Counted from the stretch's first letter, positions 30,738 to 52,843 are shown. The stretch is 64,000 bases of DNA from Alphaproteobacteria bacterium (GCA_017543835.1 JAFYFJ010000020.1:36027-100026); one strand, 5' to 3'. Notes: a model not told the origin generated them from the sequence alone. A program made the numbers and translations.

Positions 30738-30756
30738 TGGTTTTCTCCTAAAAGAA

Positions 30757-33070: not shown

Positions 33071-33121
33071 CGTATTTTCCTATGATACAGGTTAAAATTG
33101 TAGTCGCATTCTTCAGATTTG

Positions 33122-36019: not shown

Positions 36020-36580
36020 ATGAAAAAATCGCTTTTGTTCTTATTTGTTTCGTTTGCGTTTATGGGCGTTGCCGAAGATGCTTTTGCGGGTAATGCCGAC
36101 GTTATATTTGATATACTTGCATCAAAAGGCGGCACAATCGGTAAAGGATTGCGCGATACGGGCTTTTTGATTGCCGGTTTCGGTTTAATCGTCTTTTCGT
36201 TTATGGCGATTTTCAACAAAATATCGTGGAAAATGCTGGCATACATAATGTTCAGCACTTTCGTTTTAAGCACAATGATTGGAATTATCGGCTACATCAG
36301 CGGCGGACAATCCGGTCAACCGTTCCCGGATATTCAAAGCACCGGTGCGGGCGGTGAAAGTATGGACCCGACACAAAAGGAAGTGAATAAGGAAACCGGT
36401 GAAGATAAAACCGGAAGCGGAATCAGCGCACCGATGATATTCAGACCGGAAGAACAACCTTCAAATTCTCTGAATACACCATGGAACAATAATAATCAAA
36501 ACACCACGCCGGCGCAGCAACAGCCGTCTCCGTTGCAACCGCAGGATGAACAACCGTCGTGGAAAGCTCCTTGGCAATAG
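36020..36580 (+). CDS. virB2: VirB2-like pilin, paralog 3, with a Pro/Gln/Asn-rich C-terminal extension
   Basis: Signal peptide and two helices with an FNKISWKM loop, then a ~85-aa tail (NNNQNTTPAQQQPSPLQPQDEQPSW). Confidence 0.65.
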   Translation: MKKSLLFLFVSFAFMGVAEDAFAGNADVIFDILASKGGTIGKGLRDTGFLIAGFGLIVFSFMAIFNKISWKMLAYIMFSTFVLSTMIGIIGYISGGQSGQPFPDIQSTGAGGESMDPTQKEVNKETGEDKTGSGISAPMIFRPEEQPSNSLNTPWNNNNQNTTPAQQQPSPLQPQDEQPSWKAPWQ

Positions 36581-36600: not shown

Positions 36601-37044
36601 ATGAAAATTATTTTATTAGTCATCACAATTTGTTTATATGTTTTGCCGGCATACGCGTATATCGATAATACGCGTGCGGACGAAACTCAAGTGACGGCGG
36701 GTGACCAAAATTCGGCGATGCATCGTTTGAGCGACAAAAGCTCGGAAGCTCTCAAAAAATTGAAACAGGCCGACGAATATGTGACGCGCGTTAAGGCCGT
36801 CGGCAAGGCCGTAAATGCCGATGATTTGGAAGAATTGCTCCTGTCGGATAAAGAAGATAAAGAACGTCAGCAACTAAAGCAGATGATGCTGGATGCCGAA
36901 ATGAAGATGCGCTCGCCGCGGATGTTGATTGTGCAACCGGACCACGAGGTTTATGCTCATTTAACGGCCGCACGCAACAGTCAGATTAAAGATGCGCAAA
37001 CGGCGCGGGAATTGTGGCACGAACTGAAGGGGGGCGGCAAATGA
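36601..37044 (+). CDS. small secreted hypothetical protein (T4SS-associated)
   Basis: 147 aa with a signal peptide (LYVLPAYA|Y) and a charged helical body. Its stop overlaps the virB3 ATG (ATGA). Confidence 0.6.
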   Translation: MKIILLVITICLYVLPAYAYIDNTRADETQVTAGDQNSAMHRLSDKSSEALKKLKQADEYVTRVKAVGKAVNADDLEELLLSDKEDKERQQLKQMMLDAEMKMRSPRMLIVQPDHEVYAHLTAARNSQIKDAQTARELWHELKGGGK

Positions 37045-37331
37045 GAGAAGAAATCTTAAAAGCGGTTGCGCAACCTCCGAAAGTTTTGTGGGCGCCGATG
37101 GTGCCGTCCGTGATTAACCTGGGCATTCAATTTCCGGTGATGTTTATGGGTATCGGTATGGCGGGTATGAACCCGTTGTTTTTCGTGACGATGATTATTA
37201 TGTCGCATATTGCGTTGGTGTTTGCCGGTTTGAAAGAGCCGCACTTGTCGACAATGTTGCAAGCGTATGGTCAGACTTATCATCAAACTACTAATTTATA
37301 TTCGGAAGCGGGGAATAAATTTGAGCCATGA
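37041..37331 (+). CDS. virB3: T4SS protein VirB3
   Basis: ~96 aa. The LWAPMVPSVINLGIQF...FFVTMIIMSHIALVFAG hairpin is typical of VirB3. ATGA overlaps with both neighbours. Confidence 0.8.
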   Translation: MREEILKAVAQPPKVLWAPMVPSVINLGIQFPVMFMGIGMAGMNPLFFVTMIIMSHIALVFAGLKEPHLSTMLQAYGQTYHQTTNLYSEAGNKFEP

Positions 37332-39757
37332 ATGAATACGATTTTCTCAACATATTTGTGCGCGGTTTAAGCAATGTTGAAATAGCGGTAGCGATTATCG
37401 GTATTGCCTCGGCGGCCTCGTTTGCGATTTTATTGTCAACCAAATTCGGTAACTGGGTTTTGCCGCAACCGCGTGAATCGCGTGTTTCGGACTTTTTGCC
37501 GTTTCAAAAACTGATGTCGGACGGTGTGACCATTCAGTGCAACAACAATTCCTTTGCCCGAGTATTCCGACTGGACGGCGTCGACTTATCGGCGGCAACG
37601 GCGGAGAAGGTGTATTCGATGATGGAAGCACGAAAAGCGTGGATTGACGATATGGGCAATATGCAGGTTGTCGCCCGCGTGATTACCGTGCGTGACCGTG
37701 ATACTTTGGAAAGCGAAAAACGCGACTTCAATAATCCGCTTTTGGATACGATTTCTCAAATTTGGTTCGAGGGAATGAGCCGAATTTATACCAATAAGCA
37801 CTATGTTGTGCTTTCGGTTGCCGACCGCAAAGATGCGCTCAAAGATTTGAACTATGCCTCGCAAAGTTTGATGTCGACCATGAGCGAATACGGGGTCAGC
37901 CCGATGTATGAAACGGATACCAGCAGCCCGTTGGACAGTCCGTTTTATTTGTTTGCCCATTTGTGCAGTCCGGTATCGTTGCCGACGCCGAAAGTTAATA
38001 CGGCCGAAGGGGCGCGTTTGTGCGAGTTGTTGACGGCCGACCATATTCACTTTACGCGTGAAGAAGGGGTTATCCACTTTTTCTCCGGCGACCACGATTT
38101 ATACGAAATCGCTTTGGGTATTCGCAACAGCGGCGAGGCGATGGACGAGAGTATGATTTATTCGCTGAACGCCATCGACAGCGAGTTGGTGATTTTGCAC
38201 AACATCAGACCGTTGTTCCGTGCCGAAGCGCGTGCGCTTTTGATGCAACAACAACGTATGGCGATGAGCACAAGCTTATCGGCCGGTGTGGTGGAACAAT
38301 ATGCAACGGCTTTGGCATCTATCGACGATAGCGATAACGATTATCAATCGCTGGCGGAATACGCGATGACCATTATTGCCAAAGGTCGAAGCAAAGAGGA
38401 ACTCGATTTTGCCGAATCCGAAGTTCAGAGAATTTGCCGTTCGTTCGGTGTAACGCCGGTGCGTGAGGGCTGGGTGGCACAAGCGGTGTTCTTTACGCAA
38501 TTACCGACATACGACACTTATCCGCGCACTTATCGCTATTTGTCGCGGGTTATCGCGATGGCAATTACGCTTGATAAACCGGCCGGCGGCTTTGGCAAGA
38601 GTGACTGGGGTAACGGCGCGATTACGGTTTTCCGCACCATGAGCGGTTCGGCGTATCGTTTCCAATTCCACGTAAGCAGTGAAGAATCCGCGGTGGCGCA
38701 CTGTTGCATTATCGGTCCGACCGGTCAAGGTAAAACGACTTTGCTGACGTTTTTGGCCGGACAAGCCATGCGGCACGGTGATTTGCGCGTGTTCTTCTTT
38801 GACCGTCACTTGGGTGCACAAATCTTTACGCGCGCGGTCAAAGGCGCTTATGTCGGTTTTGACGGCGATGAAAAGAATGTTTCGCTTAACCCGTTTGACT
38901 GCGCCAATACGGCAGAAAACCGCGCATTTTTACGGCGCTGGCTGAAATCGATTACAATGGTTGACGATGCGCTTGCCGACCGCGAGGTCGCGCGTGCCGT
39001 CACAACGGCGTTTGACTATTTGCGGCCGGAAGAACGGTTGCTGTCAAACCTCTACAAGAGCTGTTTCTCGCCGACCGGCAATATGCGTCGCGAGTTGTAT
39101 CGTTGGGTGAATCCGGACCAATACGGCGCGATTTTCAACGGCACCGACGACAGTTTGGACTTGAAGAGCCGTCGCTTTATGGCGTTTGACTTTACGCATA
39201 TTTTTGAAGATGAAAACTTGGCTCCGGCCGTCATCAGCTATATTATGCACCGTATTCAATCCGAAACCGGCGAAACCGGTGTGCCGTCGCTGATTATGAT
39301 TGATGAAACGGCGCCGATGTTGAAGCACCCGATGTTTAGGGACTACTTTATGATTGGTTTGCAAGAAGGTCGTAAAAAACGGCAAGCATATCTCTGCGCG
39401 TTCCAACAGCCGAACATTGTCGATAAACTCGGCGTCGGCGAGGTGATTCGCGGTCAATGTCAAACCGTTATTTTCTTCCGCAACCCGCAAGCACAGATTG
39501 AAGATTATGCAAACTGGAACTTAACGCAAACCGAGCTCGATTTTATTTTCGGTAAGAGCTATCGTGACTTCCCTTATGCGATTTTGTTATCGCGTCCGGT
39601 GACCGGCGAATCCGTGATTTTGGATGTTGATTTGGGCGGTTTGGGCAAATATTTGCGCTTTTATAACTCCGGCCGCAAAAATGTGTTGCTGGTTCAACAA
39701 CTTATTCAAGAATACGGCGAAGACGGGTTCTTGGAAAAGTATCTGGACATCGCTTAG
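37328..39757 (+). CDS. virB4: T4SS ATPase VirB4
   Basis: 809 aa. Walker A GPTGQGKTT, Walker B SLIMIDETAPML, CagE/TrbE/VirB4-type length and position. Confidence 0.93.
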   Translation: MNEYDFLNIFVRGLSNVEIAVAIIGIASAASFAILLSTKFGNWVLPQPRESRVSDFLPFQKLMSDGVTIQCNNNSFARVFRLDGVDLSAATAEKVYSMMEARKAWIDDMGNMQVVARVITVRDRDTLESEKRDFNNPLLDTISQIWFEGMSRIYTNKHYVVLSVADRKDALKDLNYASQSLMSTMSEYGVSPMYETDTSSPLDSPFYLFAHLCSPVSLPTPKVNTAEGARLCELLTADHIHFTREEGVIHFFSGDHDLYEIALGIRNSGEAMDESMIYSLNAIDSELVILHNIRPLFRAEARALLMQQQRMAMSTSLSAGVVEQYATALASIDDSDNDYQSLAEYAMTIIAKGRSKEELDFAESEVQRICRSFGVTPVREGWVAQAVFFTQLPTYDTYPRTYRYLSRVIAMAITLDKPAGGFGKSDWGNGAITVFRTMSGSAYRFQFHVSSEESAVAHCCIIGPTGQGKTTLLTFLAGQAMRHGDLRVFFFDRHLGAQIFTRAVKGAYVGFDGDEKNVSLNPFDCANTAENRAFLRRWLKSITMVDDALADREVARAVTTAFDYLRPEERLLSNLYKSCFSPTGNMRRELYRWVNPDQYGAIFNGTDDSLDLKSRRFMAFDFTHIFEDENLAPAVISYIMHRIQSETGETGVPSLIMIDETAPMLKHPMFRDYFMIGLQEGRKKRQAYLCAFQQPNIVDKLGVGEVIRGQCQTVIFFRNPQAQIEDYANWNLTQTELDFIFGKSYRDFPYAILLSRPVTGESVILDVDLGGLGKYLRFYNSGRKNVLLVQQLIQEYGEDGFLEKYLDIA

Positions 39758-39891: not shown

Positions 39892-40827
39892 ATGGTGTTC
39901 AAAAAGTGTAAGATGGGGCTTTTAACGATTTTAGTCCTTGTGATAATCTCGGTTGCCGGAAAAGCTTGGTCTTTCCCGTTGCCGACAAACGATTTTCAAC
40001 GCATTGCCTCGAGCGTTCAGGTAGGCATGCAACAGGTTATGCAAATCAAGCAGGAAATTGAGAGCAACCTTAACATAATTAAAGAGATTCAAAACGGCGG
40101 TTATGCGGCGGCGGCGGGTGATTTGTTTGCCAAGATTCAAAACGGCGATTACGACCGTTTCGGCGATAACCTCAAGGGCTTAAAGAGCAGCACCTATGAC
40201 GCAACGCACAGCGCACAAAAGGTTAAAGAGCGCAAAGAAAAAGAAGAAGCAGACCGTCAGGCAAAAGAAAAAGCCGAATTGGAAAAACAAAAAGCCGCCA
40301 AAGAAAAGGGCGATGCCGCGGCGGAAGAATCGCATAAATCCTTCTTCAAACGCGGATATAACTGGATAAAGGATAACCGCCTTGTAACCGATTCGGCGCT
40401 GGGCGCGGTCAATGCGGCAAATAATAACGATTGGAGCAATGTGGTTAACGATGCGGCCAGAAGTGCCGGCGGTGCCATCGGCGGCAGCGACGGTAACGAA
40501 CTCAGCGCGCTCGGCGGTATTGTCAGCTCGGGTATGGATATCGTCGGCAACAGTAATGACTTGGGCGAATTTATTACCAATACGGCGACCAACGGCAAAC
40601 TTACCGATAACCTCAATGTTTTGAATCAAGAACACGAAGCGTTGGAAGCAAAGCTCAAAGAAGCACAAGAACAAGCCGACAGAGAGCAAGCAGAAAGAAT
40701 TAAAGAGCAGATGAAACAGCTTGAAGAAAAAATGGCTCAAGAAAGAAAAGAACAACAGCAAAAAGAATGTCAAGCGTGCAGAAGTCAAAATCCGAATTCG
40801 CCTTGTATTTCGGCGTGCTCGTTCTAG
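39892..40827 (+). CDS. secreted coiled-coil protein, family 1 (paralog of 43299-44756; possible divergent VirB5/TrbJ-like)
   Basis: AGGAGG RBS, signal peptide, helical Q-rich N-terminus, Gly/Ser/Asn-rich middle, coiled-coil, and a terminal CQAC-x9-C-x3-C motif. No TM after the leader. Confidence 0.7.
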   Translation: MVFKKCKMGLLTILVLVIISVAGKAWSFPLPTNDFQRIASSVQVGMQQVMQIKQEIESNLNIIKEIQNGGYAAAAGDLFAKIQNGDYDRFGDNLKGLKSSTYDATHSAQKVKERKEKEEADRQAKEKAELEKQKAAKEKGDAAAEESHKSFFKRGYNWIKDNRLVTDSALGAVNAANNNDWSNVVNDAARSAGGAIGGSDGNELSALGGIVSSGMDIVGNSNDLGEFITNTATNGKLTDNLNVLNQEHEALEAKLKEAQEQADREQAERIKEQMKQLEEKMAQERKEQQQKECQACRSQNPNSPCISACSF

Positions 40828-40845
40828 CTTGAAAGGACTACGGCC

Positions 40846-41502
40846 ATGTTTAGTGTCAAAAATTTAAGCAAGGTAATAATGATTTGTTTGGGTCTGACAT
40901 TTTTTGTCAGCCCGACATCATTTGCCGATGATGCAAATAAAACAAAGCAATCGACAACACCGCAAAAAGAGCCGGATGTGCAATATACCGGTGTTTATCA
41001 AGGCCGACAGCTCATTCCGAACATTATGGCGATTCATTGCAAAATGAATGCGGAAGATGTGGCTAAGGATTTGAACAAACTGGAAGGTTGCCTTCGTCAA
41101 TATATCAAAGAAATGAACAATGAAGAAGTGATGGTGGCGCAAGAGGGCAGAAAAGATTATGAAACCATGGTCTATAGCGTGCTGAACGACCTTCTCGCAG
41201 CGAGTATGACCAAAGCGGCGGCCGTCAACGGTTTTGAAACATCGATAAGGGAATATGTTGACGCCACCAACGATAAATCGGATACCAAATTCAGCACCGA
41301 AACGGCGCTTACGGATACGCTTGCTTTTTCAACCGACATTAAAAACCATCTGCGTGATTTGTATGTTGAGGCGATTAAGTATGAGGTTGTGAAGAATATC
41401 GGTGTCATCACGCCGGATGCGTTTGAAGACGATACGGAAGAAAGCAAAGACGAGTCGAAAGCCGAGCCGGATAAAGATAAAGACAAAGAAAAAGGCAAAT
41501 AA
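40846..41502 (+). CDS. secreted protein, family 2 (paralog of the core of 41530-43260)
   Basis: 218 aa with a signal peptide. The ~150-aa core VQYTGVYQGRQLIPNIMAIHCKMNAEDV...LEGC... is shared with the next ORF. Acidic/Lys tail. Confidence 0.7.
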   Translation: MFSVKNLSKVIMICLGLTFFVSPTSFADDANKTKQSTTPQKEPDVQYTGVYQGRQLIPNIMAIHCKMNAEDVAKDLNKLEGCLRQYIKEMNNEEVMVAQEGRKDYETMVYSVLNDLLAASMTKAAAVNGFETSIREYVDATNDKSDTKFSTETALTDTLAFSTDIKNHLRDLYVEAIKYEVVKNIGVITPDAFEDDTEESKDESKAEPDKDKDKEKGK

Positions 41503-41529
41503 CGGTCGAAAGCAAAAGGAGGAAGAAGC

Positions 41530-43260
41530 ATGAATATACCAATAATATATAAAAACTTGCTCAGAGTATTTGTTATTTGTCTGTGCACCGTGTGCTTAAA
41601 TGCTACTCGGGTTGCGGCGGAATCCGGATTGGGACTTTCGCCGGAAATGCAGGCCGTCAGAACGTGGTTTGAACAAAAGAGACAATCTTTGGGAATAAAT
41701 CATCCGACTGCCGAAGAAAAAAGACAAATCGAAGCCGCTAAAAAAGAATGGGATCAAAAAAGCAAAGCGATGACAGATGATGAATATCAGGAAGCCGTCG
41801 ATGCATGGGCAGATTCATCAGGAATGGCAGCTTGGTCAAAACTTAATCCGTCATCGTCAAGTGATGCCGATGTAATCGCCGCAGACAGTGCGGATTACGT
41901 TTGGAACGAAATAGAATCGTATGCGCAAAATTTGGGAGGACAAGCTAAAAAAGATGATACGGAGGGCGATGGCGGAGAACCGGACGTGTTTGAGGATATT
42001 CCGATAGAAGATTCGTCGACTTCAACACCGGCCGACGCAACTACCGCAACGGCCGAAGCACCGGCTTCGTCTGGTGCCGGACCGGTCATTACGCCGGATG
42101 TGCCGACGAACATTACGCAAACCGTAACACAAAACAATAACGGGAACATAACTCAAGAAACGACAAGTAATTCGGTGCAGTCAACCGGCGGTGCGGGAAT
42201 CGGCACAACGGCCGACGAAGGTGACGGTAAGGCAAAAAGCGATGAAGAACAAGCCGATAATGCGCAAAATAATGACAATAAGAAAGAAGAAGAAAAAGCT
42301 AAAGAAGAAGTAAAATATAGCGGTATGTATAAAGACCGGCAACTTATTCCGGACGCGATGGCCGTTCATTGCGAAATGAATGCGGAAGATGTGGTTAAAG
42401 ACATGAGTCGTCTTGAGGGTTGTATTCGTAAATATGTTACCGATATGCATAATGGCAACGCATCGGAGGCCGCCGAAGGAAAGCAAGTGTATAATGTGTT
42501 GCGCTTTAATGTTTTGAGCGATGCTCTGAAAAAAGGAATCGCCAAGGCCGCGGCCGTCAACGGATATGAAACGGCAATGAACAATTATGCCGAAGCAAGT
42601 GCAAATGCGGAAACACAGTTCGATTCTGAGGCAAACATAAGCAATACGCTTGCGTTTGCGACCGATGTGCAGAACAGTATTCGTGATTTGTATGTCGAAA
42701 GCTTGCGCATTGAAGCCATAAACGGTTTTGGCGAAGTAGACCCGGCATCATTTGCCGATGAAGAAAAGAGCGAAAAAGCCAAGAGTGTCGAAGAGAGCGA
42801 GAAAAAGTCTGACTCTAATGTAACAAATGTGGATACGACGGTTGAAATCGGCGGCGACGGCGAAGAGGTTGATACCGGCGGTGCTGATGAAGATGTAACC
42901 GAAGGCGCCGAAATACCGGAAGGTACTGAGGTGGCCGGCGGCGATGCACAAACCGGCGGAGAAGACGCTACACCGCAAACCAGAACGGTAGAGCCGGTAG
43001 ATGAAAACGACCCGGTTGCAAAAGAACTCGCCGGAAGAAGTGATGAAGATTTGAAAGATTTATATAAAGATGTTCAAAGAGACCAAGAAGAACTAAGCGA
43101 TACCATTTTCAAATTAAAGCAAATAAAAGAAAAATGGCAAAAGCAGAATAAATGGACGGAAGATGAAGAAAAGAGTCTGCAGGCAAAGATAAAAGAATAT
43201 AAGGAAATGCAGGACTATCAGAAGAGTATTGAAAAAGAACTGAATAGAAGAGGCAAATAG
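41530..43260 (+). CDS. secreted protein, family 2, expanded (acidic N- and C-terminal extensions)
   Basis: AGGAGG RBS and signal peptide. The core VKYSGMYKDRQLIPDAMAVHCEMNAEDV...LEGC is ~50% identical by eye to the 40846 ORF. Confidence 0.7.
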   Translation: MNIPIIYKNLLRVFVICLCTVCLNATRVAAESGLGLSPEMQAVRTWFEQKRQSLGINHPTAEEKRQIEAAKKEWDQKSKAMTDDEYQEAVDAWADSSGMAAWSKLNPSSSSDADVIAADSADYVWNEIESYAQNLGGQAKKDDTEGDGGEPDVFEDIPIEDSSTSTPADATTATAEAPASSGAGPVITPDVPTNITQTVTQNNNGNITQETTSNSVQSTGGAGIGTTADEGDGKAKSDEEQADNAQNNDNKKEEEKAKEEVKYSGMYKDRQLIPDAMAVHCEMNAEDVVKDMSRLEGCIRKYVTDMHNGNASEAAEGKQVYNVLRFNVLSDALKKGIAKAAAVNGYETAMNNYAEASANAETQFDSEANISNTLAFATDVQNSIRDLYVESLRIEAINGFGEVDPASFADEEKSEKAKSVEESEKKSDSNVTNVDTTVEIGGDGEEVDTGGADEDVTEGAEIPEGTEVAGGDAQTGGEDATPQTRTVEPVDENDPVAKELAGRSDEDLKDLYKDVQRDQEELSDTIFKLKQIKEKWQKQNKWTEDEEKSLQAKIKEYKEMQDYQKSIEKELNRRGK

Positions 43261-43298
43261 TTTGGTTCAAATAAGGGTTGCATGAAAGGGAGGACAAT

Positions 43299-44756
43299 AT
43301 GAAAAAGAAAATAGCGACATTGGCGGTTGCACTACTGGTCTTATTTCCTAAGACCTCCCGCGCTGATTTGGATGTGCTGTCTATTGTTCAGGATAACTTG
43401 AAAGTCTTTCAAGAAAAAGCAAGCACCATTATTCAGGGTTATGTCGGTATTCAGGTCAATTTGCAGGAAATCGCGCTCAACCGCGATATGCTCGGTGCGT
43501 TGCGGGATACGGTTAAGGACCAGGTGCAGGCAAAAGTTGCCGGCATAATTAATGATGCCAAAGTTGCGGCCGTAGATGGTGCAAAAGAGGTGTTTAACCG
43601 TCAGCTGAGTTCGGTAACCCTTCCGGGACTGAATACTTCTGTCTCGTTGGGCCCTTATACATCGCCGGTTTTGAAGCAAAAAGTGGCAAAATCTTATGTA
43701 AAACGTAAAAATCAAAAAAGCGATGTTGTCGTAAATGTTAAGCAAGATGACCGCAACAACAGAATGATGGTGGAAAATTTAGCCATTATTTATTCTAACG
43801 CTTTGGTTAAGCGCAAACAATTGTTGGGAGAAGCGGCGGAAGATTCCGAAACACCTTCTCCGGCAGAAGCGGTATGTATTTTTCCGAAGCCGACGGCAAA
43901 CGGCGGCAGTGACGGCGGGGACGACAGCTCGGATAATTCCGATGTCAGCATTTTGCAATATCGCTATGTGCAGACGGCGTGCTTTGCCAATTATCGTTGG
44001 CTCGAAATGTTGCGGTTTGAATCGACATATCGCAAGGCATTGAGCGAGCTTTATATGACAACCGGCCGTGTTGATGATATTGCGGAAATTGTCGGAACGG
44101 AAGAAAAAGATATTAACGCCGAGGGCTTGGAGGATATCGGCGCAGAAGTTGTCGGCGAACGCAAGGCGATAGACCTTTTGGCACTCAAAGACCAATGGGA
44201 TAGCGGGAAAAATGCTTTTGAAAGCGGCGATTATGCCGGCGCTTTGTCGGCCGCGGGTGCGGCCTATGGTATCGGGTCGGTTGAAGGCAATCAAAACATT
44301 GCGGATATCGTTAAGACGGGAACAACCGGCGCCGGAAACGTATATAACGCGGCAAAAGACGGTAACTGGGGCGATGTTGTCAACTCAACCGGTCACGCGG
44401 TCGGCGATTCGCTCGGCGGAAATACCGGCAGCGAAATCGGCGCAACCGGAAGCATTATCAGCGGCGGTATGGGCGTTATCTCGTCGGGCGGCAATGCCAA
44501 TGACGTGTTTGATAACTTTATGACAGACGGCAGAATTCAAAGCGGTTTGAGCGATTTCAGCAATTTGGATACAAGTCAGGAAGATGCAATCGAAAAAGCC
44601 AAACAGGAAGAAGCGGAACGGATGCAACAGAAAATGCGTGAAGATATGGCTAAAGCGCAACAAGAAATGAAACAGCAACAATGTCAATCGTGTAAAGCCG
44701 ATGCGGAAAAAGCAGGCAGAGACCCTAACATGAGTTGTTTGGCAACGTGTATGTAA
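43299..44756 (+). CDS. secreted coiled-coil protein, family 1 (paralog of 39892-40827)
   Basis: The ATG at 43299 follows GGGAGGA. Signal peptide, a Gly-rich segment similar to paralog 1, and a terminal CQSC-x14-C-x3-C motif. Confidence 0.7.
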   Translation: MKKKIATLAVALLVLFPKTSRADLDVLSIVQDNLKVFQEKASTIIQGYVGIQVNLQEIALNRDMLGALRDTVKDQVQAKVAGIINDAKVAAVDGAKEVFNRQLSSVTLPGLNTSVSLGPYTSPVLKQKVAKSYVKRKNQKSDVVVNVKQDDRNNRMMVENLAIIYSNALVKRKQLLGEAAEDSETPSPAEAVCIFPKPTANGGSDGGDDSSDNSDVSILQYRYVQTACFANYRWLEMLRFESTYRKALSELYMTTGRVDDIAEIVGTEEKDINAEGLEDIGAEVVGERKAIDLLALKDQWDSGKNAFESGDYAGALSAAGAAYGIGSVEGNQNIADIVKTGTTGAGNVYNAAKDGNWGDVVNSTGHAVGDSLGGNTGSEIGATGSIISGGMGVISSGGNANDVFDNFMTDGRIQSGLSDFSNLDTSQEDAIEKAKQEEAERMQQKMREDMAKAQQEMKQQQCQSCKADAEKAGRDPNMSCLATCM

Positions 44757-44779
44757 CTCATTCGGAAAGGAACAAGACA

Positions 44780-46060
44780 ATGAAGAAAAAATCTTTGAAA
44801 AAATATCTGTCGGCTTTCTGCCTGATGAGTGTGGTATCTTTGGCTGTGTATAATGCGCAGGCATTTATGAAGCTCGACTTTTTTGCGCCTGTGGCCGATA
44901 TCGCCGATAAAATAGGCAAAGTGAAAACAAAAATCGAAACGGTTTATAATACTCAACTCGGAAAGTTAGAGGCCAAAGTTATGAAGGTTGCCGGTCGCGA
45001 AGGTGCTATGATATTCAAATATGTTCAAAACAATGCCGGCGCCATCGTGACCAGTGCCGCCAAAGGTCAGTTTTATGCGGCGGATTATACCGGCAGCGGT
45101 ATGTGGGAGGCCTTAAAATCGGAATTGGGCGATTTAAAGCTTGATTATGCCAAAGCGCAAAGACAACTTTCGGATTATGTTGAATCACGTGAACAGCAAA
45201 AAATTGATAAAAAACAAGCGATGGAAACGGAATTGGCTAAGATGGAGGCGGAACATCAGGCCTTGAACAGAAGTATGAAAGAGCTTGAAAATAAAGGCGA
45301 GCCGATACCGGAAAACGTGCAACAGCGCTTTGTGGAACTCGAAACGGCGATTCCGAAGATGAAGGAAAACATCAAGGTTGTTATGGAAAAAGATGTTACC
45401 GAAAGCGATACTTATAAAAAAATGATGAAGGGGCTTGAGGAAAAGCAACAAAAAGTGAATACTTTGGTGGCCAAAACCTCCGAAGATTCGCTGGTGAATA
45501 TGTTGGGGCAAAAATCGGTAGATTTGTTCAGTAAAAAAGCAGATGAAGAAGAAACGCAAAACTTATACAACAACGGTTTACAAAAGTTTTTCTTGGGCGA
45601 ATACGAGCCGGTTAATCCGGAAAATGTCGAACGAATCATGAAGTTCCGCAAGCAAGAATATTATAAAGCCGTCAAAAACGCGATGGAAACCACCATTACC
45701 ACGCAAACGAGTTTAATTGAAATCGAAGAACGGAGCTTAGGTTGCACCGATGCGGCAACCAACAAGGCGCAAGGTATTTTCGGGGCATCCGGAGCAAGAA
45801 TTTGCGTTGAGTTGCAAAATGCCAAGGTGGCGGCGCGGCAAATGGAACTTTTGTTGGCCGAAATCCGTGTTGAAACAACCAAAGAAATGCAATCTTGGAA
45901 AGATAAATACAAGATGGAAGACTATGGCAAAGATATTACGAAATTTAACTTAGACGACTATGTTATGAAAAAAGATACATTGTTCCGAAAAGCGAAAAAC
46001 AAAGCAAAGTCGGCGATTAATGATAAAATAACAAATTTTGATGTGTCCAGCGGATTTTAG
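44780..46060 (+). CDS. secreted coiled-coil hypothetical protein
   Basis: The ATG at 44780 is preferred. Signal peptide (SLAVYNAQA|F), long E/K/Q-rich helical sequence, no TM. Confidence 0.65.
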   Translation: MKKKSLKKYLSAFCLMSVVSLAVYNAQAFMKLDFFAPVADIADKIGKVKTKIETVYNTQLGKLEAKVMKVAGREGAMIFKYVQNNAGAIVTSAAKGQFYAADYTGSGMWEALKSELGDLKLDYAKAQRQLSDYVESREQQKIDKKQAMETELAKMEAEHQALNRSMKELENKGEPIPENVQQRFVELETAIPKMKENIKVVMEKDVTESDTYKKMMKGLEEKQQKVNTLVAKTSEDSLVNMLGQKSVDLFSKKADEEETQNLYNNGLQKFFLGEYEPVNPENVERIMKFRKQEYYKAVKNAMETTITTQTSLIEIEERSLGCTDAATNKAQGIFGASGARICVELQNAKVAARQMELLLAEIRVETTKEMQSWKDKYKMEDYGKDITKFNLDDYVMKKDTLFRKAKNKAKSAINDKITNFDVSSGF

Positions 46061-46071
46061 GAGGAAATATC

Positions 46072-49000
46072 ATGAAAAAAATTGTTTATTCTATTTGTGT
46101 GCTCCTGACCTCACTATTTTTTACGCGCAACGCTCATGCAATATGGCCTGACTTTACGCCGGCGATTCCGTTTTCGCCGCAGCTTTGCGTTATGTGTATT
46201 CCGCCGGCAATTTCGGTTGCGGTGTCTTATTATGACCAAGCCATGCAACTTAAAGAGGATTTGCAAAAATATACCGATATCACAACCTTAAAACAAATGG
46301 CGGCATCGTATGTTTCAAAAATGGGAACGACGGCGTTTAACAAATGGCGTCAAAGTAAGAATACGCGTGACAGAGGAATTTCATACGCCCGCACCATTGA
46401 AGACAGTAAAATTGCCGACCTTAAAGATGAGGCCTCGGTGAAAAATGCGTTTGTGAAATTGTTTATGCAATACCCTTCCGACAAATCACGCACCAAGGCC
46501 GCTTATAAAACCATCGGCGAACAGCTCAAAATGGATACGACTCTTGAGATGTATCTGACGGCGGTGGAAATGGAGAAAAAGCTTTACGGCAACACAAAAG
46601 CCGGAAAAGAAAGCAACGATTCCAAAAATATGGAAGATTTGGGACTGCTTAAACAAATCGATTTGTTTGAAAGCTGCCTTGTTCAAGGCGAAAATTGCGA
46701 TATTGTCGGCTTGAACAGTTGTCAGGAAAAATCCGGCGGCGGTTCGGACGATACCAAAGAAGACCAAGCGTGCTTCTGGAACAGTGCGTTGCAAGCCGAA
46801 AAACTCTATGACGAAATTATGCGCTACAACCTGTTCTTAATCACGATGCACGCACAATATCAGGCCGTTACCGGTATCGATATTTTAGCAAAAATCAAGG
46901 AATATGACGCCGAGAAAAAAGGCGAAGATGACAAGAAAAAAGACGAAGATAAATCATCTTTCCTGATTGAGCCGTATTTTATGCCGAGCACAAATACGGC
47001 AATGAGCGGTGTTTCGGCGCAAGCGGCATTTGCCGATTTGTCACCGGAGGAAGAAGAATTTGCCGAATCGGAATTATCCGGCTATGAAGAAAGTCTTTTG
47101 TCGCACGAAAATGTTATTGACGGCACTTTTGAAGATGCCGACCATCCGGACGGTTTTACATTGACCATCGGCGAGCGCGAAGATGATATTGCGAGTTTGG
47201 AAATCATCGGCGAAGCGCGTTCGGATTTAAATCAGGCGCAAAAAATACACAACTTGAAAAAGACTTTGCCGGAATATAAAAAAGTTTATCAGGATTATGC
47301 CGACGCTCAGGCAAAAATGGAACAGGCAAAAGCCAACTTACAGGCCTCCGGCGAGTGCGTCGAGAATATGATGGCGCCTTATTATGACAATCCAAGTGCG
47401 GTTTGGCTTGGTGGCAGTTGCACATATTATCGCGAAGGTCAGCTTGCTTGCCATTATGAGCCGGAAAAATCGGCGGATGACGAAAGCGAATCCGACGGAC
47501 TTTTCGATATTCTGTGTCCGGATAACGGCGCATATAACTGCTATGTTCAAGAGTTGCGCTCAAGCAACATAACGGGCGGTGTCGCCAAATATTTGCTGGA
47601 ATTGTATTCTGCCGCAAAAGATGAAGATGCGGCCGGCGATACGGAAGCATTTATCAATACGGAAGAAGAACAGCAGGACGGCGGCTATGTTTCGAGAGCC
47701 ACGATTACGACCGGCGGCGAGGGCTCGGAAGTAAGCGAAGATGAAGACGGCTTGTTTGCCTCCACTCGAGATTCCGATGATACAATGGATGAACACCAAT
47801 TGGCAAAAATGTCGGAACAAACTTCGGATACCGATTCGGGCGAAACCGTTTCGAATATGAAAGACCAGGAAAAAGGCGAAGAAGAAAAAGAACAGGCGCG
47901 TAAAGACAGTCTTATCAGATGGGTTATCGGCTCCGAAGTTGCCAAAGAACTGGCTCTGGACTTGGATACGGGCGAGCATAACTGGGGCAGTGTTCGTCAA
48001 AAATTCCCGCTCTGGAATGACCAAATTGCATATTACGACCAATATATTGACGGGAAATATGAAAATATCGAAGATTATATCAACAGTATGAAGCAAGTCG
48101 ATATGTTGCTGAAGTTGGCAACCACTTTGAATGTGATTTATCCGTATAAAGTTATTGAAGGAATCCCGCCGATTTCGGCTGAAACGCAACGCGAAGAAGC
48201 CAAAAGTGCTCTGACGGAATTGGGCGATACCTTAAAGAAAATGAAAGAAGGGTTATTCGGTGCGCCGGCAAATCAGGAAGAAGACGTAACATTTGATGAA
48301 ATATATAATAAGCAAATCGAAGATGCCATTGCCGCCGAAAATGCGAAGATTGAAGCCATTAAATTCGAATATGAACAAAATCGCGCCGCATTGCTGAGAC
48401 GTTTGAAGGCATTGTATGCCGTAATGAACGAAGCCAACACCAATTTAGATGACCTCAACCAAGAGTATAATCAAAATAACGAGATTGTGAAAAAAGGCGA
48501 TGCGACAACACCGGAAGCTAAAGAGGGCTTAGATTACGGCAAAACGCTTTATACCAATCGTAAATTGAGTGCAGATTCGCCGCAAAATACCGAATTTAAC
48601 GCAACCCAAGAAAACAATACCAAAAATTCGGCCGATGCCAGAAATAAACAGGCCACTGCCGCGAATAAAGCCGAACAATACGAACATATTGTGAAGGTGG
48701 CGGAAGAACAGGTAAAAAAAGTTAAAGAAGACTTAGATGTATTGCGCCGTCAATATGTGAAAAAATTGAGCGACGCCGAAGCAAGCGGAAGAACTCAGTT
48801 TACGGAATTTACGGAATCCTTGCGTGCGTCACGGCAAATCGGTGAATGGACATCGGCAACAAACGAGGTTTCGCCGCTTAAATTGTCGGAGAGTTTGTTG
48901 ACGTGCATCAAAACATACGCTCTTTCCAAAGTTTCCGAAGCCAAAACGAAAATCGATAAAATGAAGGATGACCAGTCGCTTTATTATGTTGCCGGCGCCG

Positions 49001-50931
49001 AAAAAGTGCAGGAAATTCATAATAAGATGATTAAGGAAATTACGGAAATACCGCTGGATAAATTGGCGGAATGTGCCGCTCTCGGCGAAATCAACGATTT
49101 TGACAATAATTCGGAAGAAGATATTGCGCCGGTTATCAATGTTTTCAAAGATATTTGTAAAGACGGTTTATGCACCACGCCGGACAGCGATTATTTTGTG
49201 GGCGCCATCGGTTTGCCGCGCGATTTTTCGGCTCCGAAACCGCCGCTTGAGTTCAGCTCGGCACCGTTGCATGAAGTGTTCCATTTTGATATTATCGACT
49301 TCAATAATGTTGATAAATATTATGAAGACAAAGATGATATTTATTCCAACAAAAAGATGTTCACATCGTTTGAAAGTTTCTTAAACTTCCTTAATACAAG
49401 TTCATCGGGCTTTGAATACGGCGGAACAACCTATGATTCAACGGTTCCGGTTATTTGGAAGTATATATTGAAACGGCACGCTTTTGTGCAAAAAGAAATG
49501 GATTTGACGGCATTGTTGGGAGATGACGAAGAAGCCGAAGCGGATTCACTTGCCGCCAACAATGAGAATACGATTTTGCGCGCAGGTATTTTTCCTTGCA
49601 TGGCAACGGATAAATATGTTGTTGATGTTATGAAACCTGAAAAATTGTCATTACCGTTCTTCCTTAAAGATAAAATCAAGAATACATTATATACTTATAA
49701 CTTAAATCGCAAACCGGATAATCCGGACGGCGAATACGGGAATATTCCGGAATGTCGGGCGGTTGAGTTGAAGAGTGTTGACGGCAAAGTGGTGGTATAC
49801 GACAAAGAGGCCGGTTTATCCGTCAGCATCGATGATATCGGAACATTGCGTCCGGGTGCAAGCCGCAGCAGCGAGCTCGGCACGATTATGTCGTATGTGG
49901 TGGATGAAGGAACGGTTATGGAAGCAATGATAAAGGCCGGACTTTTGGGTCACAAAATAGTAGACCGCGCATCGTTGCCGCACCGTTTTACCTTTAATCA
50001 GACCATATTGGATGCCATAGCCGATATTAATAAAACGGAAGATTTAACCGATGATGACGAAGCCGTTAAGTTTTATATGGCAAGCAGATTGCTGTATGAC
50101 AGCAACCAATTCGGCGATTATCTGGAACAGGTGGAATATGAAAGCATTGTAGCGGATTCTATGGAAAAAATCAAAAAGCAAATTGATGAAATCAGCGGTA
50201 AGTTGAACGATGTGTTCTCGGCCGCCAATTATGCGATATCCGATGACTTTAATCTGCTGAACGAAAGTGATTATGAAACCGCCGCCAAGATTATGGATGA
50301 GCAAAAAGAACTGTATCTGGATTTGGCAACACAAAAGTTGGATAATATTCCGGATAATAAGATTAAGTCGCAAAACATACGCGATAAAAAAGACAAATTG
50401 TTGCATAAACGCGCTCTTTTGCAATACGACAGCGAAGAAGTCGTGACCATAAACGGCAGCGAAGAAATAGATGAGCTGGAAGACAAAATTAAAAATCAAC
50501 AAGCGGATAGAACCGTCAATGAAAAATATAAAGAAAAAGAAGATGAAGAATTAGAACGTCAGAAAAAACATAAACGTATGCCGTATTGCGCATTTTATCC
50601 GACGGTAGAGGCCGCTGCCGGCTATTCGCCTAAAACCAACAGTGTGCCGCAAAAGTCCGGCGACAAAACGCTAGAGGATGTTCCGGCAGAAGAAAATACG
50701 GAAGGCGGAGAATTCTCGGCAACAACGGGTGAAGTGACCGGTGCGTCCGGCAATATTACGGCAGAATCCGGCTCGTTTGCAAGTTTAGTCGGAAGTTCGG
50801 CCGTCAACGATAATAATCTCGAGGTTGTTCAAGGGGCAGAAGAAGGAAGCTTGACATCGGCGCAAAATGGTGCAAAATCATTAGATGATTCCGGCGCTAA
50901 GGACTGGGGAATGGTCGGCGGCGGTTTCTAA
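46072..50931 (+). CDS. giant (1619 aa) secreted acidic protein, T4SS-associated
   Basis: AGGAGG RBS and signal peptide (FFTRNAHA|I). No further hydrophobic segment. Multiple coiled-coil and acidic low-complexity stretches; 15 Cys scattered through the mature protein. Confidence 0.75.
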   Translation: MKKIVYSICVLLTSLFFTRNAHAIWPDFTPAIPFSPQLCVMCIPPAISVAVSYYDQAMQLKEDLQKYTDITTLKQMAASYVSKMGTTAFNKWRQSKNTRDRGISYARTIEDSKIADLKDEASVKNAFVKLFMQYPSDKSRTKAAYKTIGEQLKMDTTLEMYLTAVEMEKKLYGNTKAGKESNDSKNMEDLGLLKQIDLFESCLVQGENCDIVGLNSCQEKSGGGSDDTKEDQACFWNSALQAEKLYDEIMRYNLFLITMHAQYQAVTGIDILAKIKEYDAEKKGEDDKKKDEDKSSFLIEPYFMPSTNTAMSGVSAQAAFADLSPEEEEFAESELSGYEESLLSHENVIDGTFEDADHPDGFTLTIGEREDDIASLEIIGEARSDLNQAQKIHNLKKTLPEYKKVYQDYADAQAKMEQAKANLQASGECVENMMAPYYDNPSAVWLGGSCTYYREGQLACHYEPEKSADDESESDGLFDILCPDNGAYNCYVQELRSSNITGGVAKYLLELYSAAKDEDAAGDTEAFINTEEEQQDGGYVSRATITTGGEGSEVSEDEDGLFASTRDSDDTMDEHQLAKMSEQTSDTDSGETVSNMKDQEKGEEEKEQARKDSLIRWVIGSEVAKELALDLDTGEHNWGSVRQKFPLWNDQIAYYDQYIDGKYENIEDYINSMKQVDMLLKLATTLNVIYPYKVIEGIPPISAETQREEAKSALTELGDTLKKMKEGLFGAPANQEEDVTFDEIYNKQIEDAIAAENAKIEAIKFEYEQNRAALLRRLKALYAVMNEANTNLDDLNQEYNQNNEIVKKGDATTPEAKEGLDYGKTLYTNRKLSADSPQNTEFNATQENNTKNSADARNKQATAANKAEQYEHIVKVAEEQVKKVKEDLDVLRRQYVKKLSDAEASGRTQFTEFTESLRASRQIGEWTSATNEVSPLKLSESLLTCIKTYALSKVSEAKTKIDKMKDDQSLYYVAGAEKVQEIHNKMIKEITEIPLDKLAECAALGEINDFDNNSEEDIAPVINVFKDICKDGLCTTPDSDYFVGAIGLPRDFSAPKPPLEFSSAPLHEVFHFDIIDFNNVDKYYEDKDDIYSNKKMFTSFESFLNFLNTSSSGFEYGGTTYDSTVPVIWKYILKRHAFVQKEMDLTALLGDDEEAEADSLAANNENTILRAGIFPCMATDKYVVDVMKPEKLSLPFFLKDKIKNTLYTYNLNRKPDNPDGEYGNIPECRAVELKSVDGKVVVYDKEAGLSVSIDDIGTLRPGASRSSELGTIMSYVVDEGTVMEAMIKAGLLGHKIVDRASLPHRFTFNQTILDAIADINKTEDLTDDDEAVKFYMASRLLYDSNQFGDYLEQVEYESIVADSMEKIKKQIDEISGKLNDVFSAANYAISDDFNLLNESDYETAAKIMDEQKELYLDLATQKLDNIPDNKIKSQNIRDKKDKLLHKRALLQYDSEEVVTINGSEEIDELEDKIKNQQADRTVNEKYKEKEDEELERQKKHKRMPYCAFYPTVEAAAGYSPKTNSVPQKSGDKTLEDVPAEENTEGGEFSATTGEVTGASGNITAESGSFASLVGSSAVNDNNLEVVQGAEEGSLTSAQNGAKSLDDSGAKDWGMVGGGF

Positions 50932-50974: not shown

Positions 50975-51730
50975 GTGGCACAGTTAGACAGCGGCGTGAA
51001 AAAGATTTTGATAGGCGGTAATGTTCCGCCGAAAAGCCCGTCGTATCAACCGCATTTTATCAGCGAAGTCGAAAAGGAAGAAGCGTATGGCAAAGAGCGC
51101 TATTTCCGTTGGCTTTCGCGTTTGGTAATGCTGTGCGCTTTTGTTTCGCTCTCGTTTTTCTTGAGTTCGACATTGGTTATTTTCCGTTTGGCGCCGGAAA
51201 TTATCGTTGAGCCGCTTTTACTCGTTTCCAATCAGACGGATTCAAACAATTTGGTGCGCTATGAGCCGATTGCTACCAATATGCCGTCTTTAAAGCAAAT
51301 GACGGAGATGTTTATTAAGCAATATGTGATTGTGCGCAATACGGTGGTGATTGATGAACAGGAAATGAAAACGCGCTGGGGTTTGGGCGGCATTCTTCAA
51401 TATTTGTCATCGGAAGAGGTTTATTCGGATTTTGTCGGCGGTTTTGCCGAAGATGTCGGCCGATTATATAATCACTCGTATTCAAGCGAAGTTTATATTG
51501 ACCGCATCGGCAAAGAAGCGGAAAATTCGCCTTCGTGGACGGTTGACTTTACGGTGCATCACTTGTCGCAGGGGCGTAACAGCACCGGCACAATGACACT
51601 CAAAACAGAAAAATTCAGGGCTTCGGTTACGCCGCGTTATTATCCGGAAAGACGGTTGGTAACGCGCCGTTTGGTTAATCCGCTCGGCTTTATGGTTGAA
51701 AAATACAATCAAAGCGAAATCAGAGAATAA
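50975..51730 (+). CDS. virB8: T4SS protein VirB8, copy a
   Basis: GTG start. Cytoplasmic N-terminus, one TM (LVMLCAFVSLSFFLSSTLVIF), and a periplasmic NTF2-like domain with FIKQYVIVRNT and NPLGFMV motifs. Confidence 0.8.
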   Translation: MAQLDSGVKKILIGGNVPPKSPSYQPHFISEVEKEEAYGKERYFRWLSRLVMLCAFVSLSFFLSSTLVIFRLAPEIIVEPLLLVSNQTDSNNLVRYEPIATNMPSLKQMTEMFIKQYVIVRNTVVIDEQEMKTRWGLGGILQYLSSEEVYSDFVGGFAEDVGRLYNHSYSSEVYIDRIGKEAENSPSWTVDFTVHHLSQGRNSTGTMTLKTEKFRASVTPRYYPERRLVTRRLVNPLGFMVEKYNQSEIRE

Positions 51731-51874: not shown

Positions 51875-52063
51875 ATGTATAAGAAATTTTTGATTGTTGC
51901 AATACTGTTGATTTTATCGGCATGCAGCTTATTCGGTTCGTATTATGAGCCGGAAGCGGTCGGTATCGGCAAAGACGTCAACGAACTGAAACTTTCGCCG
52001 TGTGCATGTATGCAGCTTGACTTAATGAAAAATGTGCCGGATTGGTTCTGGGAAGCGATATAG
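51875..52063 (+). CDS. virB7: small lipoprotein, VirB7-like
   Basis: 62 aa with lipobox LILSAC. Lies between two virB8 copies, as in Rickettsiales rvh loci. The call rests on size, lipobox and position only. Confidence 0.5.
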   Translation: MYKKFLIVAILLILSACSLFGSYYEPEAVGIGKDVNELKLSPCACMQLDLMKNVPDWFWEAI

Positions 52064-52072: not shown

Positions 52073-52843
52073 ATGGCAGAATTGGGTAAAATTAATACGG
52101 AAAAACGGCTTATATCGTCCGGTCAGCCGCAGGCGGCACACAGCAGCAGTGCATCGCGACGCAATACGATTAAGCGCTCGGACGACAGCTTGGTTGTTAA
52201 TGCCAGCGAAAAAAGATATTTGTGGACGGCACGCGCCTTTGCGGTGGTGACGGCCATCAGTTTGTGCTGCAACTTAATTTTGCTCTTGACGATATCCAAT
52301 ATTCTGCCGCTGTATCGAATTGAGCCGTATTTGATTACTTTAACCAACAAAGAAAATCAAGTATATCACATTGTGCCATACAGTCGTGATATGGAGGCCA
52401 AAAAAAATATTACGGAAACATTTGTTCGGCAATATGTGTTGTTGCGCACAACCTTGTTGCCGGATATTGATGAAATGGAATCACGTTGGTTGAGCGGCGG
52501 CGATTTGCAAGAAATGTCGTCGGAAAGAGTGTATACCATTTTCTTGCACAAAACCGGCCAGCCGTGGTTGCAAAAAATGAAAGAAGACGGCATTACCAGC
52601 AATGTTAAAATTTTGACGGTAAACGAAATTGATGATTCGGTATGGCAGGTTGAATACAGCGTGGATTATTATCTGCCGGCAGAACGTAAGCCGACAACCA
52701 AAAAGTTCCGCGCAATTTTGAGAATTCAGTATCGCGCCAGAGCGGTGCAATATAAAGAAAGATTGAAGAATCCGGTCGGATTTAAGGTAATAGAATACGG
52801 TCTGAAAGATCTTTCCGATGATAGAACGGAGGCAAAACAATGA
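52073..52843 (+). CDS. virB8: T4SS protein VirB8, copy b
   Basis: One TM (AFAVVTAISLCCNLILLLTI), FVRQYVLLRTT and NPVGFKV motifs. Only distantly similar to copy a. ATGA overlap with virB9. Confidence 0.8.
   Translation: MAELGKINTEKRLISSGQPQAAHSSSASRRNTIKRSDDSLVVNASEKRYLWTARAFAVVTAISLCCNLILLLTISNILPLYRIEPYLITLTNKENQVYHIVPYSRDMEAKKNITETFVRQYVLLRTTLLPDIDEMESRWLSGGDLQEMSSERVYTIFLHKTGQPWLQKMKEDGITSNVKILTVNEIDDSVWQVEYSVDYYLPAERKPTTKKFRAILRIQYRARAVQYKERLKNPVGFKVIEYGLKDLSDDRTEAKQ

Follow-up and report, generated by a model that had tools for sequence, protein, structure and literature searches.

In type IV secretion systems (T4SS), VirB5 and VirB6 make up the central stalk that nucleates the pilus, and VirB6 is held to be universal. 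The Cag system of Helicobacter pylori has several small secreted VirB5-like or tip-associated proteins (CagL, CagI and CagH) that are encoded together, some of them with a common C-terminal motif. In the Trw system of Bartonella, which has no coupling protein, the multiplied and fast-diverging TrwL and TrwJ act in host-specific adhesion (PMC2883598). Here we analyse a stretch of 64,000 nucleotides (nt) from Alphaproteobacteria bacterium (GCA_017543835.1, JAFYFJ010000020.1:36027-100026), hereafter the window, which is chromosomal (tyrS, uvrA, murJ and msbA are present) and which from 35.2 kb to its end forms a single T4SS operon on the + strand, as seen from open reading frame (ORF) calls and Pfam matches. 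The slot between virB4 and virB8a in this operon, where one VirB5 and one VirB6 gene would ordinarily stand, holds six genes, A to F, and we propose, with a probability of about 0.55, that this 11-kb block arose by a radiation, specific to the lineage, of the gene for VirB5, the pilus-tip or stalk adhesin, in a T4SS of the VirB/Trw type, a reading that draws on sequence comparisons. The six genes are listed below with their lengths in amino acids (aa), their ribosome-binding sites (RBS), the predicted ends of their signal peptides (marked by a slash) and, for three of them, the ratio of nonsynonymous to synonymous substitution rates (dN/dS) against a close relative.

39892-40827, + strand: ORF A, 311 aa; RBS AGGAGG; signal end AWS/F; dN/dS 0.10
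40846-41502, + strand: ORF B, 218 aa; weaker RBS AAGGA; signal end SFA/D
41530-43260, + strand: ORF C, 576 aa; RBS AGGAGG; signal end VAA/E; dN/dS 0.17
43299-44756, + strand: ORF D, 485 aa; RBS GGGAGG; signal end SRA/D
44780-46060, + strand: ORF E, 426 aa; weaker RBS AAGGA; signal end AQA/F; dN/dS 0.09
46072-50931, + strand: ORF F, 1619 aa; RBS AGGAGG; signal end AHA/I

An earlier, sequence-only reading of this DNA had described six consecutive same-strand ORFs in the slot, separated by gaps of 10-40 nt, preceded in most cases by good RBSs and spanning about 11 kb. All six are present where that reading placed them, with a Shine-Dalgarno sequence before each, intergenic gaps of 18, 27, 38, 23 and 11 nt, 134 nt between virB4 and A, 43 nt between F and virB8a, and a block length of 11,040 nt. 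A mechanical ORF list begins D at 43278 and E at 44735, at TTG codons that lengthen both, but the ATG starts were retained because they are preceded by an RBS and match the N-termini of the orthologues (MKKKI...). The same reading had given each protein a signal peptide and no further transmembrane (TM) segment, and our inspection agrees: signal peptides, judged by eye from a basic, a hydrophobic and an A-x-A-type stretch, occur on all six, and a simple Kyte-Doolittle screen (19-residue window, mean >1.4) finds one hydrophobic stretch in each, at the N-terminus, with a marginal extra at residues 31-34 of F beside the signal region. Its claim of coiled coil for all six holds in A, D, E and F, and there in parts only, and fails for the domain common to B and C, and the Q-rich mature N-terminus that it ascribed to E is not there. 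Pfam returned no family for any of the six, and HMMER comparisons of the single proteins and of their family profiles with the sequences of the PDB returned coiled-coil and designed-helix matches only. No lipobox occurs in A-F, and on this ground we rejected the possibility that they are lipoproteins. Terminator-like sites inside the block are no commoner than in shuffled sequence, so a terminator dividing the block was also rejected. In the gap between virB4 and A, positions 39829-39857 carry the region's best sigma-70-like match (ATTACA-17-TATAAT with an extended TG), a match to consensus only; the six slot genes might have a promoter of their own as well.

To place the slot in its lineage, one genome per species was scanned, which gave 251 confirmed relatives of the VirB4, and the slot was analysed in the best 80 of these 251, whose VirB4s are 72-91% identical to that of the window. 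All 80 loci come from metagenome-assembled genomes of uncultured gut, rumen or faecal Alphaproteobacteria, such as 'Proteobacteria bacterium CAG:495' and 'Candidatus Scatocola', a clade that we take to be the GTDB order RF32. In every one of them the interval from virB4 to virB8a measures 7.4-11.2 kb and holds 4-7 ORFs with a signal-like N-terminus, and none of the 353 slot ORFs of these loci has two or more TM segments beyond the N-terminal signal. The absence of a polytopic VirB6 between virB4 and virB8, which the sequence-only reading had reported for this genome, therefore holds across the 80 loci and is a trait of the clade; that reading had also named a lack of conservation in related genomes as evidence that would tell against it, and the slot is kept in all 80. 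Measured against L148, a close relative with the same six-gene layout, and with synonymous divergence (dS) near saturation, dN/dS is 0.09-0.23 for A-F and 0.03-0.04 for virB4, virB3 and virB2a. These values show that the six are real, constrained genes that evolve several-fold faster than the core, and they led us to reject the possibility that A-F are spurious, non-coding ORFs.

The case for kinship with VirB5 begins with a group of related plasmids. A search with the VirB4 against 72,556 plasmids found the closest plasmid homologues, at 34-38% identity, in Erythrobacter aureus YH-07, Sphingosinicella sp. BN140058 (p1) and Microvirga sp. VF16 (pMVF16-3). These plasmids share with the window the gene order virB2-B3-B4-slot-B7-B8-B9-B10-B11, the SPCAC motif of VirB7 and a slot without a canonical VirB6, but they have two slot genes, a single virB2 and a single virB8, a VirB10 of normal size, and both a relaxase and VirD4; since the latter two are present, they look conjugative. 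The Microvirga plasmid differs in having an extra 228-aa ORF with three TM segments. The first slot gene of the plasmids encodes 251-273 aa, belongs to a family that carries the VirB5 domain PF07996, and is called VirB5 by one source. The second encodes about 430-490 aa and matches the VirB5 family in hhalign at 98% probability and an expectation value (E) of 3.5e-14; with its start corrected, the protein opens with a signal peptide and carries a short Cys loop and an N-terminus of the VirB5 type, C-I-V-x-D. The annotated GTG starts of the 453- and 422-aa 'hypothetical' proteins of Erythrobacter (locus L151, 12177-13661) and Sphingosinicella (L152, 12055-13557) appear to lie too far downstream, and in both the frame stays open in the 5' direction as far as an earlier Met, which adds the signal peptide and Cys loop. 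F and this second plasmid gene stand in the same position, just 5' of virB7/virB8.

Profile-profile comparison by hhalign of the slot families with the VirB5 family of the sister plasmids, with reversed templates as controls, points to the same kinship. The family of first slot genes matches VirB5 at 95% (E 4e-8 to 6e-8), and the N-terminal domain of F does so at 85% (E 6e-6) from two independent alignments and matches the second VirB5-like protein of the plasmids at 79% over 194 columns. E reaches 55-75%, with its positions 266-375 falling on VirB5 139-245 at 74.5% (E 2.7e-5), and a hidden Markov model of the E family matches the plasmid VirB5 at both ends with the order preserved. D matches the C-terminal helices of VirB5 at 41% (E 3e-4), B in one alignment falls on VirB5 positions 162-220 at 95%, and the N-terminus of A, with its signal peptide, matches at 85%. 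The same segments of VirB5 are aligned time and again, namely the N-terminal helix and the C-terminal helices at about 127-245, and the reversed-template controls give E of 0.04-0.7. The slot families resemble VirB5/TrbJ proteins (PF07996; TraC of pKM101, TrwJ of R388) also in their Sec signal, in the absence of TM segments, in their site directly 3' of virB4, in all-helical predictions, and in a mature start of the form [aromatic/I]-P-[T/V/L]-x-D ahead of a long helix; in the first slot gene the predicted mature N-terminus reads [W/F]P[T/L]xD, and the mature starts WPT[LF]DI.. and FPLPT.D parallel the VirB5 motif GIPVIDP. They differ from VirB5/TrbJ in lacking a match at Pfam level, in number (4-7 copies against one, with one copy split) and in size (up to 1619 aa against about 220-250), and nothing in VirB5 corresponds to their inserted coiled coils, to the Cys-rich regions or to the CxxC...C...C tail. 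Taken together, we consider it probable that the slot families derive from VirB5. A weak Pfam match to DUF4141, a family that presumably comprises conjugative-transposon proteins of Bacteroidota encoded near a VirB4 homologue, was seen in 4 of 37 first-slot proteins over the signal peptide and first helix (best E 1.3e-4), the ORF at 12504-14048 of locus L045 among them. It is the one Pfam signal related to T4SSs among the slot families, whose other matches were coiled-coil noise.

The six proteins are also related among themselves, in a manner that shows how the block grew. In A, the signal peptide is followed by a conserved N-terminal module of about 100 aa (FPLPT.D...QIKQEIESN...NGDYDRFG) and then by a coiled coil, and the C-terminus is formed by a CxxC...C...C tail. 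D combines a VirB5-like N-terminal module with a C-terminal part of 150 aa that is paralogous to that of A, the two being homologous over the last ~150 residues including the Cys tail (E 1e-23), and when the slot proteins of all loci were searched iteratively against one another, the N-terminal module proved common to A, D and E (D and E modules, hhalign 95%). E looks VirB5-like, with a coiled coil inserted in its central part. B and C have in common a domain of about 180 residues (43% identity, E 3e-52), C being a paralogue of B with acidic low-complexity extensions at both termini. In more distant species the A module and the B/C domain are fused in one protein of 450-800 aa, and the B/C domain is found in the first-slot protein of 30-40 loci; we read A as the N-terminal and B as the C-terminal half of an ancestral VirB5-like first gene. 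In F, the signal peptide precedes a Cys-bearing, VirB5-like N-terminal domain of about 270 aa, beyond which lie a long coiled-coil stretch, Cys-rich regions that are conserved and a tail that varies. Giants of the F type, of 1240-1650 aa, invariably close the slot, a position they hold in 57 loci. A HMMER search of 1.84 billion representative proteins with the profile of the F N-terminus returned 96 matches, nearly all of them giants of the same family and almost all of 1250-1850 aa, which shows F to be restricted to the clade. Four families keep a fixed order in every species. Because the A module and the B/C domain are fused in distant species and the F type comes last, the ancestral layout of the clade is one of four genes ('first', a short D type, E and an F of 1300-1650 aa). 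In the window's subclade the first gene has been split into A and B and D has gained an A-like Cys tail, and in this genome B has been duplicated to give C and hence six genes.

Several results weigh against a VirB5 radiation. None of A-F matches PF07996, and neither do 45 members of the E family, 29 of the F family and 37 of the first family up to E 1; the HMMER profiles did not find a solved VirB5 structure. Without its signal peptide the N-terminus of A drops to 6.5% (E 0.006), the fused first family without signal peptides gives two matches in the same order at E 0.0018 and 0.0098, the B/C domain by itself reaches E 0.04, and the full-length alignment of F reaches 11%, so that the hhalign probabilities depend on the alignment and range from 7% to 95%, falling to 6.5-15% once signal peptides are taken off or full-length alignments are used. 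Helical sequences rich in Q, E and K are prone to spurious profile matches. The VirB5 fold is a bundle of three helices that bears a globular appendage, and the protein sits as a pentamer on VirB6, at the tip of the pilus. AlphaFold2 models are helical with unreliable packing, at a mean predicted local distance difference test score (pLDDT) of 48 for A, from an alignment of 36 sequences, and of 40 for F 1-330, from 4 sequences; a homologue search with the F N-terminus had found 3 proteins. Both the localisation and the function of A-F as display proteins of a stalk or tip are purely inferred. As to VirB6, none is found within about 9 kb past virB11 in the nearest relatives (L084, L085, L087 and L090), whose genes in that stretch (yidC and genes for an autotransporter and a histidine kinase) are unrelated.

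If the likeness to VirB5 were a matter of composition, A-F could instead be lineage-specific parts of an enlarged periplasmic or outer-membrane core, comparable to Cag3, CagM and CagT or to DotF, DotH and Dis. The machine is indeed expanded, with a VirB10 of 1412 aa, a beta-flower protein of 1669 aa, a duplicated VirB8 and a CagX-type VirB9, and F is large and steady in length (1240-1650 aa), with many Cys and aromatic positions conserved from end to end; that the VirB5 matches stay below Pfam thresholds and weaken without signal peptides is also what such parts would give. We nevertheless consider this unlikely, as independent alignments pick out the same regions of VirB5 in the same order and far above the reversed controls, the homologous slot of the sister plasmids holds only two proteins with proven VirB5 domains, and rates of 3-7 times the core suit exposed components better than ring scaffolds.

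The signal peptides on all six proteins, together with the absence of a VirD4 homologue from the window and from about 145 related loci with their flanking sequence, bring to mind a different role, that of Sec-dependent cargo released or displayed by a T4SS that has no coupling protein, as pertussis toxin subunits are by Ptl. The genes lie within the operon, evolve fast and include a giant adhesin-like protein, and in the Ptl precedent the cargo possibly substitutes for VirB5 (PMC12857230). Like the window, the Bordetella Ptl system has no VirD4 and has Sec-exported proteins encoded with the machine; unlike the window, it lacks VirB5, keeps VirB6 (PtlD) in place and has its toxin genes upstream of the operon. 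The profile links of the slot families to VirB5 speak against cargo, as does the fixed order of the four families in every species, which is unusual for effectors, and VirD4 could be encoded elsewhere in the genome; a cargo role therefore seems to us quite improbable.

A radiation of VirB5 leaves the question of where VirB6 is encoded. VirB6/TrbL proteins have four to six hydrophobic helices, and no slot protein resembles them, as A-F have neither a Pfam TrbL match nor hydrophobic helices beyond the signal segment. Among ORFs of the 35-64 kb region, three or more hydrophobic segments occur only in the virB2 copies and in antisense artefacts, and the whole 64 kb holds no unexplained polytopic ORF, those of the upstream 35 kb belonging to other families. 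In a sister subclade, we examined the 27 metagenome loci that have at least 8.6 kb of sequence past virB11, and 19 of these carry a TrbL/VirB6-like gene 7-9 kb past virB11 on the opposite strand. In locus L134 (19005-20666) the match to PF04610 scores 33.7 bits against a cut-off of 25.9, and a second example scores 23.2 bits. The protein has at least 550 aa, with a polytopic N-terminal region and a long hydrophilic C-terminus, an architecture that corresponds to 'extended VirB6' in the sense of a recent review (PMC12857230). Beside it lie a regulator of the XRE type and four conserved genes without assigned function. The whole accessory cluster spans 12103-20666 (- strand) in L134 and is also seen in L093, L101, L106, L120, L144 and others; in addition to the extended TrbL/VirB6 it comprises a double XRE helix-turn-helix regulator that is 83-100% conserved, a Q/A/P-rich protein of 850-1084 aa, a protein of 190-280 aa, a lipoprotein of 415-535 aa and a single-TM protein of 234-284 aa, and in L091 and L140 four genes of the cluster stand 3' of virB11 on the same strand. 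We considered whether the unassigned genes represent a second recognisable T4SS and rejected this, as they have no Pfam match and no Walker A motif. In the close relative L084, the gene 3' of virB11, at 12279-16481 and co-directional with it, encodes an autotransporter of 1400 aa (PF03797).

By analogy with the sister subclade, VirB6 is most likely an extended protein of the TrbL type whose gene lies outside the slot, and 'no VirB6' is true of the slot but probably not of the system. The sequence-only reading had offered extremely divergent VirB5 relatives, with VirB6 encoded elsewhere, as one of two possibilities, and of the two this one fares better. The part that has gained ground comprises hhalign matches above controls, VirB5 proteins in the slot of the sister plasmids, and a TrbL gene linked to the operon in the sister subclade, while the missing Pfam match, the 7-95% range of probabilities and the pLDDT values of 48 and 40 leave the remainder short of confirmation. 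The other possibility was a machine organised differently from described IVA systems, and literature searches on the T4SS of this clade and on natural systems that lack VirB6 found no relevant work. In this vein, it is conceivable that the window's subclade, and perhaps the related plasmids, have no VirB6 at all, with soluble VirB5-derived F, or the second VirB5-like protein of the plasmids, as the base of the stalk. The 80 loci without a polytopic slot ORF would agree with this, as would the lack of VirB6 downstream of virB11 in the four nearest relatives and in the window's upstream 35 kb. On the Erythrobacter plasmid, virB2 and virB3 are the only polytopic genes between mobA and a point 12 kb beyond virD4. 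VirB6 of R388 is mostly periplasmic, with two anchoring helices only, which favours such a substitution, but VirB6 is described as conserved in all T4SSs (PMC12857230). Moreover, an extended TrbL-family VirB6 is linked to the operon in the sister subclade and the lineage therefore uses one, and the sequence covered amounts to about 64 kb for this genome and to pieces of 20 kb for its relatives; we regard a subclade without VirB6 as very unlikely. In its boldest form, a whole branch of alphaproteobacterial T4SSs, comprising the window's subclade and the plasmids of the Erythrobacter/Sphingosinicella type, would have a VirB6-free stalk of soluble, Sec-exported VirB5-derived proteins, including a giant of 1300-1800 aa, and would form a surface organelle without coupling protein that occurs order-wide in gut commensals, a proposal that we hold to be quite improbable.

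We return to the reading that we prefer, a radiation of VirB5, for which the Bartonella Trw system is the nearest parallel. Both systems are chromosomal and of the VirB/Trw type, and in both, virB2 (trwL) and genes of the VirB5 type (trwJ) occur in several copies that diverge more quickly than the rest, and no coupling protein is seen, although for the window's lineage the absence of VirD4 is shown for the flanks only. The lineage has three TrbC-type genes and 4-7 VirB5-like genes, whose identity as VirB5 is only probable, with dN/dS of 0.09-0.31 against 0.03-0.04 for the core. In Trw, however, trwJ is co-amplified with trwI (VirB6) and trwH (VirB7) in near-identical tandem units, whereas the copies in the window are ancient, very divergent, varied in architecture and without VirB6, and co-amplification was not found, there being one virB7 and no virB6 in the slot. 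The hosts differ as well, a gut commensal lineage here and a blood pathogen for Trw. The rvh system of Rickettsiales, to which the sequence-only reading had compared the slot, is like the window in being chromosomal, in its duplicated virB8 and multiple virB2, and in having several enlarged genes after virB4, but what is enlarged there is a set of polytopic paralogues of VirB6, in a system that has no VirB5, whereas the slot proteins here look VirB5-derived. As the slot proteins have no TM segments they are not VirB6 paralogues; the comparison does not carry over, and an rvh-like expansion of VirB6 was rejected. The H. pylori Cag system shares with the window the joint encoding of several secreted proteins, VirB5-like or tip-associated in Cag, as well as a huge repeat-bearing VirB10 (CagY) and a CagX-type VirB9, but CagW (VirB6) and Cag-beta (VirD4) are present there and the repeats of the window are of the beta-flower type; no sequence similarity of the window's proteins to Cag proteins was found. 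A BLASTP comparison of A and F with the slot proteins of the Microvirga plasmid likewise gave no match.

The genes that surround the slot complete the operon as far as the window reaches, which is 307 nt past virB10 and short of virB11; in the relatives virB10 is followed by VirB11 (322-335 aa), where the operon ends.

35245..35577, + strand: virB2a pilin, 110 aa; Pfam TrbC/VirB2 E 1e-7; signal peptide and 2 TM; dN/dS 0.04
35672..36007, + strand: virB2b, pilin paralogue, 111 aa; Pfam TrbC E 5e-8; dN/dS 0.31
36020..36580, + strand: virB2c, VirB2-like with a P/Q-rich C-terminal tail, 186 aa; Pfam TrbC E 5e-5, under the curated cut-off
36601..37044, + strand: signal-peptide protein, 147 aa, role not assigned; no significant Pfam match; confined to the window's subclade
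37041..37331, + strand: virB3, 96 aa from the internal Met used by orthologues; weak Pfam VirB3 match, E 0.006; identity 53-79% over 80 loci
37328..39757, + strand: virB4 ATPase, 809 aa, predicted N-terminal TM; Pfam CagE_TrbE_VirB E 6e-14
50975..51730, + strand: virB8a; Pfam VirB8 E 3e-12
51875..52063, + strand: virB7-like lipoprotein, 62 aa, lipobox LSAC; between the two virB8 copies; kept in relatives
52073..52843, + strand: virB8b; Pfam VirB8 E 1e-23
52840..54420, + strand: virB9, CagX-type, weak SPOR-like C-terminus; Pfam CagX E 1e-11
54443..59452, + strand: 1669-aa protein with one N-terminal TM and beta-flower repeats; Pfam Bflower_2 E 4e-113
59455..63693, + strand: virB10, 1412 aa, beta-flower repeats followed by a C-terminal TrbI domain; Bflower_2 E 5e-49, TrbI E 4e-31

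The nearest solved structure to the VirB4 is TrwK of R388 (E 2e-36), and its residues 6-40 (37328-37450) are predicted as TM despite the presence of a separate virB3, as is also the case in the VirB4s of the sister plasmids. Counterparts of virB2c in other loci reach 350-480 aa with 3-4 hydrophobic segments (L038, 8415-9578; L054, 8378-9688; L082, 8173-9612), and in L057 the position is taken by a 1444-aa ORF (5217-9551). The ...SPCAC.QL motif of the virB7-like lipoprotein also occurs in lipoproteins of Microvirga and Erythrobacter. The 1669-aa protein and VirB10 hold dozens of beta-flower repeats (PF21785/PF21784), and the giant repeat-bearing VirB10 recalls CagY. Directly upstream of the operon and divergent from it, 24724-34915 (- strand) carries a cluster resembling type IVb pilus genes, with T2SSF, a GspE/PilB-type ATPase, an R64-type PilO (PF06864), a secretin, TcpQ and two large unassigned proteins. 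In L057 and L072 this cluster is co-directional and immediately 5' of virB3/virB4, in L072 without a visible virB2, and its presence beside a T4SS recalls the thin pilus of IncI plasmids. Further upstream, 3335-6805 encodes a 1156-aa ORF with GldF-like ATP-binding cassette permease and GldG-like regions and 8 predicted TM segments, which has no relation to the slot.

Under a radiation of VirB5, the slot proteins would cross the inner membrane by Sec and join the periplasmic stalk or the tip of a pilus built on the triplicated VirB2, so that their long, fast-evolving coiled-coil and giant C-terminal parts would be shown to the target surface, in a mode akin to that of the amplified TrwJ and TrwL of the Bartonella Trw system, which operates without coupling protein. 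The system as a whole would then be an order-wide, expanded and apparently coupling-protein-less member of the VirB/Trw type, in which the VirB5 module has radiated and an extended VirB6 has been relocated.

While not categorically new, the finding should interest microbiome biologists and those who specialise in T4SSs. Among the Alphaproteobacteria of gut and rumen, a large uncultured lineage retains a chromosomal T4SS (VirB4 72-91% identical among the best 80 of 251), in which the VirB5 position has radiated into 4-7 secreted proteins, one of more than 1,600 residues, and VirB6 has shifted out of the operon core and in some members may have been lost. Whether VirB6 is indispensable could be addressed in the related plasmids, a tractable system that has two genes of the VirB5 type and in which no VirB6 is visible. 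If the slot proteins are indeed variants of a tip or adhesin, they would be natural candidates for the contact of abundant commensals with host or bacterial surfaces, and the principle known from Bartonella Trw would reach beyond pathogens.

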